DNA from: Escherichia phage A6-6
Reading direction: 5' to 3' (one strand)
DNA: 64,000 nt
Sequence record: PQ510734.1
Part shown: piece by piece, positions 55,832 to 56,194 of the stretch
How positions within the stretch are numbered: position 1 is the first letter of the stretch
Layout: the number at the start of each line of letters is the position of its first letter
Notes under the pieces: generated by a model
What the model saw: only the letters and a program-made list of their open reading frames with translations
Told to the model about the DNA's origin: nothing
Databases searched by the model: none
Position numbers and translations under genes: made by a program

Positions 55832-56194
55832 ATGAAAGCATATCAAATTCTTGAAGGCACACATAAAGGTACTATTTATTTTGAAGATGGTATTCAAGCG
55901 CGAATTATTGTCTCTAAAACCTTTAAAGAGGACTCTTTTGTAGACCCAGAAATTTTCTATGGTTTGCATGCCCGTGAAATTGAAATTGAAACACAACCTA
56001 CAGTTAAAATTGAAGGTGGTCAACACCTGAACGTTAACGTTCTGCGTCGTGAAACTCTGGAAGATGCAGTTAAGCATCCGGAAAAATATCCGCAGCTGAC
56101 CATCCGTGTATCCGGTTATGCAGTTCGCTTTAACTCTCTGACTCCGGAACAGCAGCGCGACGTTATCGCTCGTACCTTCACCGAGAGTTTGTAA
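55832..56194 (+). CDS. autonomous glycyl-radical cofactor (GrcA/YfiD-like; T4 Y06I-type)
   Basis: C-terminal glycyl-radical motif RVSGYAVRF inside ...[60 protein letters not shown]; the 3-prime half has enterobacterial-like codon usage. Confidence 0.85.

Follow-up and report, generated by a model that had tools for sequence, protein, structure and literature searches.

Escherichia coli YfiD (GrcA) and the phage T4 protein Y06I are both radicalised by the activating enzyme of pyruvate formate-lyase (PFL), and both restore PFL that has been fragmented by oxygen (Wagner et al. 2001, as cited in PMC8683613). YfiD has a disordered part, residues 1-60, which contributes to binding and activation, and a structured domain, residues 61-127, which is folded like PflB 693-759; it is this domain that bears the radical and docks in cleaved PFL (PMC8683613). 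The C-terminal glycyl-radical domain of PflB itself (PDB 2PFL/1H16 and others) has the same fold and motif as the phage protein considered here, and is the piece that this protein is thought to replace. A different kind of precedent is found in cyanophages, where psbA and psbD, which are host-metabolism genes, reportedly carry patches exchanged with the host copy that are seen as shifts in composition (an observation said to go back to Sullivan and colleagues in 2006).

We examined the gene vs.6 in a stretch of 64,000 nt from Escherichia phage A6-6 (PQ510734.1), referred to below as the window. The gene, its family and its biochemical activity are already known and annotated, and we add nothing new on what the gene does. 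What concerns us here is its composite nature. We consider it highly probable, from sequence comparison, that vs.6 of the window is an early-gene glycyl-radical spare part whose radical-domain segment was overwritten by E. coli grcA DNA. Like the cyanophage psbA and psbD genes, it would be a phage-carried gene of host metabolism with an intragenic host patch and a composition shift, and by this analogy a host-phage mosaic of this kind has a clear precedent. The two cases differ in gene, host and phage group; moreover, the vs.6 patch is single, sharply bounded, limited to one structural domain and 100% host-identical. The nucleotide mosaic, its clade-wide distribution and the shared polymorphisms are undescribed in the searchable literature, outside of which key older papers lie, so that an earlier mention is possible.

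Position of vs.6 and its relation to T4 Y06I

The window is a segment of a Tequatrovirus (T4-like) genome, in an orientation that is the reverse of the T4 reference. Its gene order vs.8-vs.7-vs.6-vs.5-vs.4-vs.3-regB-vs.1 is the order annotated in T4 (NC_000866), where the counterpart of the ORF at 55832-56194 is vs.6 (NP_049730), with the RefSeq name 'autonomous glycyl radical cofactor GrcA'. The features of this region are as follows.

55832..56194, + strand: vs.6 / Y06I coding sequence, 120 aa, stop included (from the ORF list, the T4 annotation and gene order)
55444-55824: vs.7 ortholog, upstream neighbour of vs.6 (vs.8 lies further upstream)
56194-56415: vs.5 ortholog, downstream neighbour of vs.6
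57012-57473: regB ortholog, downstream of vs.6
55823..55826, + strand: Shine-Dalgarno-like GAGG, 5 nt before the vs.6 ATG (read directly from the sequence)

The genes are tightly packed: the GAGG overlaps the vs.7 stop codon (TGA, 55822-55824), and the vs.6 TAA (56192-56194) overlaps the vs.5 ATG (56194-56196). Promoter and terminator signals between 54800 and 57100 did not exceed shuffled expectation, and therefore vs.6 appears to lie inside a polycistronic unit running from vs.8 to vs.1.

The vs.6 protein of the window is identical to T4 NP_049730 at 118/120 residues. The two differences are T54 (P54 in T4) and R73 (H73 in T4), R73 being the E. coli residue. At the nucleotide level, 356/363 positions are identical, leaving 7 differences. 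With this high identity, and with its place between vs.7 and vs.5 in the denV-regB early region, the gene falls in the orthologous group of T4 vs.6 (Tevenvirinae). Judged by identity and position, then, the ORF is the ortholog of T4 vs.6/Y06I, beyond being a mere homolog. The initial annotation had proposed this comparison, and the T4 gene turned out to share the locus and also the mosaic structure described below.

Two minor observations were made on the neighbouring reading frames. The vs.5 ORF (56194-56415) encodes 73 aa in the window and is annotated as 58 aa in T4, where one C is missing (L002, ~5520-5558; ttcgcgagtgg in T4, ttcgccgagtgg in the window), giving a frameshift in vs.5; in most relatives the ORF is annotated as 222-225 nt. 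An antisense ORF of 127 aa with a TTG start (55817-56200, - strand) covers the whole of vs.6. As a gene, it was rejected for want of independent support; most likely, the codon structure of the sense strand gives rise to it as a by-product.

Relationship of the vs.6 protein to GrcA and PflB

We observed that vs.6 encodes a stand-alone protein of GrcA/YfiD size (120 aa, ~14 kDa) with the glycyl-radical domain at its end. Pfam Gly_radical (PF01228) covers residues 60-101 with 67.2 bits, against a cutoff of 22.2. The family model TIGR04365 (spare_glycyl) aligns with residues 20-120 at 154.6 bits and thus stays below its equivalog cutoff of 170 bits, because the N-terminal half has diverged. From these scores, the protein seems best described as a phage sub-lineage of the GrcA family that lies below the NCBI equivalog threshold. 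Against the YfiD NMR structure (PDB 6OWR), the match has E = 4.6e-42, and the phmmer alignment pairs residues 22-120 with 28-127 of 6OWR. The radical site could be placed as follows.

56114..56116, + strand: codon of the predicted radical site Gly95 (RVSGYAVRF in the translation; alignment to 6OWR and PFL chains)

Gly95 aligns with G102 of GrcA and G734 of PflB, and the radical loop around it is R92-V93-S94-G95-Y96-A97-V98 (from the translation, aligned to 6OWR and PflB). Residues E61-L120 are all identical to E. coli GrcA 68-127, which agrees with what the initial annotation had said of the C-terminal ~60 residues and the RVSGYAVRF motif. In GrcA, these 60 residues hardly vary between E. coli and Pasteurellaceae, and phage homologs show little more variation. 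As a practical caution, protein-level identity in a radical domain that varies so little across hosts is uninformative on origin, and a nucleotide comparison is needed.

The overall architecture is that of E. coli GrcA/YfiD, with a non-conserved N-terminal half followed by the glycyl-radical domain. It differs in that the vs.6 protein is 7 residues shorter and its first ~20 residues are not alignable, and in that vs.6 sits in a phage early operon rather than at the host grcA locus. In the PflB comparison, residues 58-120 align to PflB 697-759.

A tract in vs.6 identical to E. coli grcA

Pairwise alignment of vs.6 with E. coli grcA divided the gene into three parts.

55832..56009, + strand: phage-type 5' half (residues 1-59 and part of codon 60), AT-rich, with ~51% nucleotide identity to E. 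coli grcA where alignable
56010..56178, + strand: host-identical tract, 169/169 nt identical to E. coli grcA (pairwise alignment, locus L001)
56179..56194, + strand: phage-type end of the gene including the TAA, the last 16 nt, with 5 synonymous differences from E. coli

The tract consists of codons 61-115 together with two bases of codon 60 and two of codon 116. It corresponds to GrcA codons 68-122, which lie inside the structured domain and begin ~7 residues past its start. Thus, the tract covers nearly all of the structured domain, and the phage-type half matches the disordered region of GrcA. The identity stops abruptly at both edges, and no similarity to E. coli grcA was found past the vs.6 stop codon in the pairwise alignment. 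It had been suggested that the host-like DNA extends over about 56020-56194; this DNA is indeed host-like, but it starts ~10 nt earlier, at 56010, and ends 16 nt short of that limit, at 56178. In codon-aligned comparisons with E. coli grcA, the N-terminal part is identical at 60/117 nt and the tract at 167/168 (Fisher P = 2e-27), and third codon positions in the tract match E. coli at 55/56. The nucleotide identity is thus far above the level that protein conservation would give, which was the outcome that the initial annotation needed from such an alignment. Since the tract is ~80% identical to pflB and 100% to grcA, the donor would be grcA and not pflB.

Among E. coli genomes, 5156/5426 (~95%) carry the tract at >=99% identity, and the 3' 185 nt of vs.6 are 97.3% identical in all 5426 complete genomes. 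The E. coli gene sits in a conserved ung-grcA-eamB context on the chromosome. When the 64-kb window was compared with all E. coli genomes by megablast, the tract was the sole match to E. coli chromosomes. No further host-identical patches were found in the window, the other matches being only those of phage tRNA genes to tRNAs on phage-like plasmids.

The tract does not end at the same place in all phages. Its 3' end is at 56178 in the window and at ~56187 in T4, 9 nt further on, where the gene likewise lies between vs.7 and vs.5. The last 16 nt were presumably retained in phage-type form for translational coupling to vs.5, the overlapping vs.5 start setting the 3' limit of the exchange.

Base composition

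The composition of the gene changes at the tract boundary. The 5' half has a GC content of 0.333 and a GC3 of 0.186, and the 3' half has 0.497 and 0.459, the window mean GC being 0.363. Just 1.1% of 183-nt windows reach the GC content of the tract. Five of the six Leu codons in the 3' half are CTG, and Arg is encoded there only by CGT/CGC and Pro only by CCG; the 5' half contains no CTG, no CCG and one CGT. These counts bear out the earlier remark that the 3' DNA is richer in GC and in CTG, CGT and CCG codons than the AT-rich 5' half, and composition along the gene is clearly non-uniform.

The remaining GC-rich spots in the window are the tRNA cluster and the major capsid gene. The latter (13884-15449, - strand; gp23-like, 521 aa) reaches a GC of up to 0.55 at ~14920-15030 without similarity to E. 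coli DNA, so that high GC alone is no marker of host origin here. The cluster at 47464-48484 holds 11 tRNA genes (Gln, Leu, Gly, Pro, Ser, Thr, Met, Tyr, Asn, His, Arg). In E. coli, ~258 plasmid records of ~75-117 kb, which we take to be phage-plasmids, carry tRNA genes that match the Tyr-Asn part of the cluster (~48044-48201) at 83-90% identity; on chromosomes, this part has no match.

The 5' half and the kind of mosaic

We also asked what the 5' half represents. BLASTP aligns vs.6 residues 22-60 with GrcA 28-67 (14/39 aa, 35% identity, E = 2e-6), and phmmer likewise finds the N-terminal homology, the first ~20 residues apart. By these alignments, the 5' half is a diverged GrcA N-terminal region and not unrelated phage sequence. 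Many Straboviridae genera have grcA-like genes whose N-termini have diverged, as do T5-like Demerecviridae and jumbo phages. As the 5' half is homologous to GrcA and the family is widespread in phages, what we see is a resident gene with a replaced 3' part rather than a new fusion.

With a host-derived segment, phage-type sequence on both sides and a shift in composition, vs.6 has the make-up of a mosaic, and on the sequence evidence it is a grcA homolog of long standing in phages that has received a patch from host grcA by homologous recombination. The initial annotation had spoken of a chimeric gene arising from recent host capture. Host origin and recency both stand; what has to be given up is the capture or fusion, in favour of the conversion of a patch in a homolog that was already there.

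Comparison with other phages and hosts

As a baseline, the 3' 183 nt of vs.6 homologs were compared with E. coli grcA by phage group, with the following identities.

T4-type (window, T4, Carettavirus phiE142, Tequatrovirus JK45, Mosigvirus LF82-41): 95-98%
Jiaodavirus: 84% (88.5% to the best host)
Pseudotevenvirus: 83%
Slopekvirus: 81%
Nanhuvirus: 79%
Karamvirus: 76%
Krischvirus RB49: 74%
Aeromonas phage 44RR: 74%
T5-like phage: 72%
Jumbo Yersinia phage: 64%

Outside the T4 type, phage genera with the same domain thus reach 64-84% identity to E. coli, and no sampled host comes closer than 88.5%; protein conservation is therefore no explanation for the identity of the tract. At third positions of shared amino acids, non-T4 lineages match their best host at 50-70%. 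The longest exact run with a host is 167 nt for the window and 17-41 nt for the other phage genera, and none of the non-T4 lineages across ~90 loci had a tract more than 90% identical to a host. For the T4-type tract, E. coli was the nearest among 81 host species, and the next genus was Citrobacter (~0.90).

These comparisons bear on two ways in which the identity could have arisen without a patch from the host. The whole gene might have been captured long ago, with extreme purifying selection on the radical domain keeping the 3' half host-like while the N-terminal half drifted. The near-invariance of the C-terminal 60 residues, from E. coli to Pasteurellaceae and most phage homologs, is what such a reading would build on. 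However, the synonymous sites of the tract are identical as well, and phage genera with (almost) the same peptide match a host at no more than 50-70% of third positions. The grcA genes of E. coli and Citrobacter already differ by ~7% in the tract, and selection of this kind would not explain why the identity ends abruptly at both edges; we regard an old capture as very improbable. An artefact (host contamination or a chimeric assembly) or a transfer from phage to host is scarcely credible, nothing speaking for either beyond the identity itself. Against an artefact speaks the in-frame junction, which T4 reference records share with ~640 independently sequenced phages. A reverse transfer is at odds with the conserved chromosomal context of grcA and with its agreement with host phylogeny (between E. 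coli and neighbouring host genera, grcA identity is 86-93%, as vertical descent predicts), and the codon usage of the tract is host-like and not phage-like. In addition, 13/20 phage-private substitutions in the tract run from GC to AT, a bias expected if host DNA is ameliorated in an AT-rich genome, and in line with transfer from host to phage. A host origin of the tract by recombination thus seems very likely.

In the Jiaodavirus group, Klebsiella phage KSKp (L006, 301-663) and the IMG/VR locus L120 have 3' halves with LLDAVEH in place of LEDAVKH (Klebsiella/Enterobacter-type) and a GC of 0.55-0.56. They are 88.5% identical to an Enterobacteriaceae grcA, far above the other non-T4 lineages, in a host sample that did not include K. 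pneumoniae grcA. Jiaodavirus vs.6 may be an older, independent conversion from a host.

Two sets of records were discarded. L123, a 91% match that looked like a host-like phage tract, is a bacterial grcA in a contig labelled viral (full-length, beginning MITGIQITKA and Yersinia-like), and IMG/VR loci L164-L174 are the 3' end of bacterial pflB rather than phage GrcA homologs. If left unfiltered, these would inflate the counts of 'phage' GrcA homologs.

Distribution among T4-type phages

The E. coli-type tract was found at >=99% identity in ~390 phage records and at 95-99% in 252, together ~640 T4-type genomes. The mosaic is therefore clade-wide in T4-type phages and no peculiarity of phage A6-6. 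Tequatroviruses isolated on Yersinia, Citrobacter or Proteus also keep the E. coli-type tract.

We aligned the 300-nt flanks of ten T4-type loci and obtained two flank clades, one (clade A) with the window, T4 and L095-L098, and the other (clade B) with phiE142, JK45, LF82-41 and L099. Mismatches between the window and phiE142 were distributed as follows.

Upstream 300 nt: 101-111 mismatches
vs.6 5' half: 18/178 mismatches
Tract: 0/169 mismatches
Last 16 nt: 4/16 mismatches
Downstream 300 nt: 84 mismatches

Between clades that diverge by 28-37% in their flanks, the tract thus stands out as an island of identity, and what it is identical to is E. coli. Since it is the same across divergent flank clades, the replacement would post-date the split of the lineages. 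To judge from this pattern, the tract must either have reached the phage lineages independently or have spread among them.

Some tracts have decayed. JK45 and LF82-41 have six changes each, three of which are common to the Mosigviruses LF82-41 and FP43. We propose that these may be older copies decaying towards the AT-rich composition of the phage.

The 5' half of vs.6 showed a pattern of its own. It is ~10% divergent between clades, against ~28-37% for vs.7 and vs.5 (55532-55831 and 56195-56494, compared with L003-L005 and L099). It may be that phage genera exchanged the whole of vs.6 at a later time than the genes next to it.

One exchange or several

To see whether host variants occur in phages, we compared the tract with grcA alleles from four E. 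coli genomes, taken at even steps down the ranking by tract identity, and from one related Escherichia species. The E. coli alleles with a single SNP were 56023 A>G (O157:H7), 56050 T>C (HS-01) and 56113 C>A (O43, EC0880B), and the related species had 56035 T>A and 56113 C>T. Each of the five host SNPs sampled was also seen in phage tracts, where the flank haplotypes differ:

56023 A>G: phage L095
56050 T>C: phages PhiZZ23, Kha5h, AR1 and L095
56113 C>A: phage L098
56035 T>A: phages KMB26, HY01 and PEC04
56113 C>T: phage JK45

The hypergeometric probability of finding all five among the phage variants (22/128 possible synonymous changes) is 1e-4, and for the three SNPs of E. coli proper it is 4.5e-3, both under a null of uniform mutation that is a real weakness of the test. 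The pair of SNPs in L095 was found in none of the E. coli genomes, where the best identity was 98.8%. The tracts of JK45 and LF82-41 do not derive from other E. coli alleles, their best match among them being the common allele at 96.5%. None of the phages isolated on O157:H7 (0/4) carries the O157 SNP, so that conversion is not tied to the host of isolation.

The shared SNPs and the variable 3' ends suggest multiple exchange; parallel synonymous mutation could also give the sharing of SNPs. The results for L095, JK45, LF82-41 and the O157:H7 phages speak against frequent conversion, as does the E. coli-type tract in Tequatroviruses isolated on Yersinia, Citrobacter or Proteus. Whether the replacement happened or was refreshed more than once, or happened once and then spread from phage to phage, we consider about evenly balanced. 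In its strongest form, repeated exchange would mean that in T-even phages the 169-bp segment of vs.6 is subject to an ongoing, recurrent conversion from the grcA of the cell being killed, sampling host alleles as it goes; we hold this form tentatively, at somewhat under even chances. The tract would then stay identical to E. coli while its neighbours diverge, and would serve as a recombination island that reinforces itself, in a phage that is strictly lytic and breaks down host DNA; to this corollary we give the same cautious, slightly less than even credence.

A single conversion from host to phage in one T-even lineage, followed by spread between phages (Tequatrovirus, Mosigvirus and Carettavirus) during co-infection, would make the coincident SNPs parallel mutations. 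We find this possible, at rather less than even chances. In keeping with it, the 5' junction is the same in every T4-type genome, and the isolation host does not predict the allele. Exchange among phages is also suggested by the whole of vs.6 being closer between clades than its flanks are (10% divergence in the 5' half, ~30% in the flanks), and a single conversion with recombination between phages would yield the same island. Moreover, certain GC-to-AT changes are common to the Mosigvirus tracts and specific to that lineage, as would fit an older event followed by vertical descent. On the other hand, phages have all 5 of the host SNPs sampled, and two of these SNPs are transversions. Unchanged E. 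coli copies are found in both clades although the flanks within a clade have diverged by 2-5%, and the 3' end point varies among phages, which a single event would not lead one to expect.

Possible role and significance

The proposed history and role can be set out as follows. A grcA-like gene is an old resident of Straboviridae and of T5-like and jumbo phages. The conservation of its domain presumably kept phage and host DNA alike enough for homologous recombination, and in the E. coli-infecting group of T4, Mosigvirus and Carettavirus, positions 56010-56178 would have been overwritten by host grcA in this way. Untouched by this would be the N-terminal half, still of phage type, and the final 16 nt, where the start of the next gene overlaps.

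With 2/120 residues different from T4 Y06I, which has been tested in vitro, the window protein probably has the same function by orthology. The initial annotation had cited the restoration of oxygen-damaged PFL by Y06I, and the literature agrees in so far as it is represented by Wagner et al. 2001, as cited in PMC8683613. In the infected cell, PflA, the host radical-SAM activase, would install the radical on Gly95 of the vs.6 protein, whose C-terminal domain would insert into PFL that oxygen has cleaved at G734, restoring the production of acetyl-CoA and formate. As T4 shuts off host expression, no new PflB or GrcA would be made, and the phage spare part could keep up the fermentative energy metabolism of a cell unable to make its own, sustaining fermentative ATP in microaerobic habitats such as the gut. 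We infer that this ATP supply is the benefit of vs.6 to the phage; an in vivo benefit is not documented in the accessible literature.

The value added by these observations is evolutionary and modest. The only DNA that the 64-kb window shares with the host chromosome is a bounded patch in the structured catalytic domain of a host-repair protein, and this patch is found in ~640 genomes of the best-studied lytic phage lineage. Provided that conversion from the host recurs, vs.6 would offer a simple, tractable assay for host-to-lytic-phage recombination and would be the enterobacterial counterpart to the cyanophage psbA mosaics.

One further record showed an altered form of the gene. In Escherichia phage vB_Eco_Some (OZ034686.1, 46616-47057), the 363-nt gene matches as two pieces over 442 nt, and the 169-nt tract is stretched over 248 nt. 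This suggests a partial internal duplication or insertion, or an assembly artefact.
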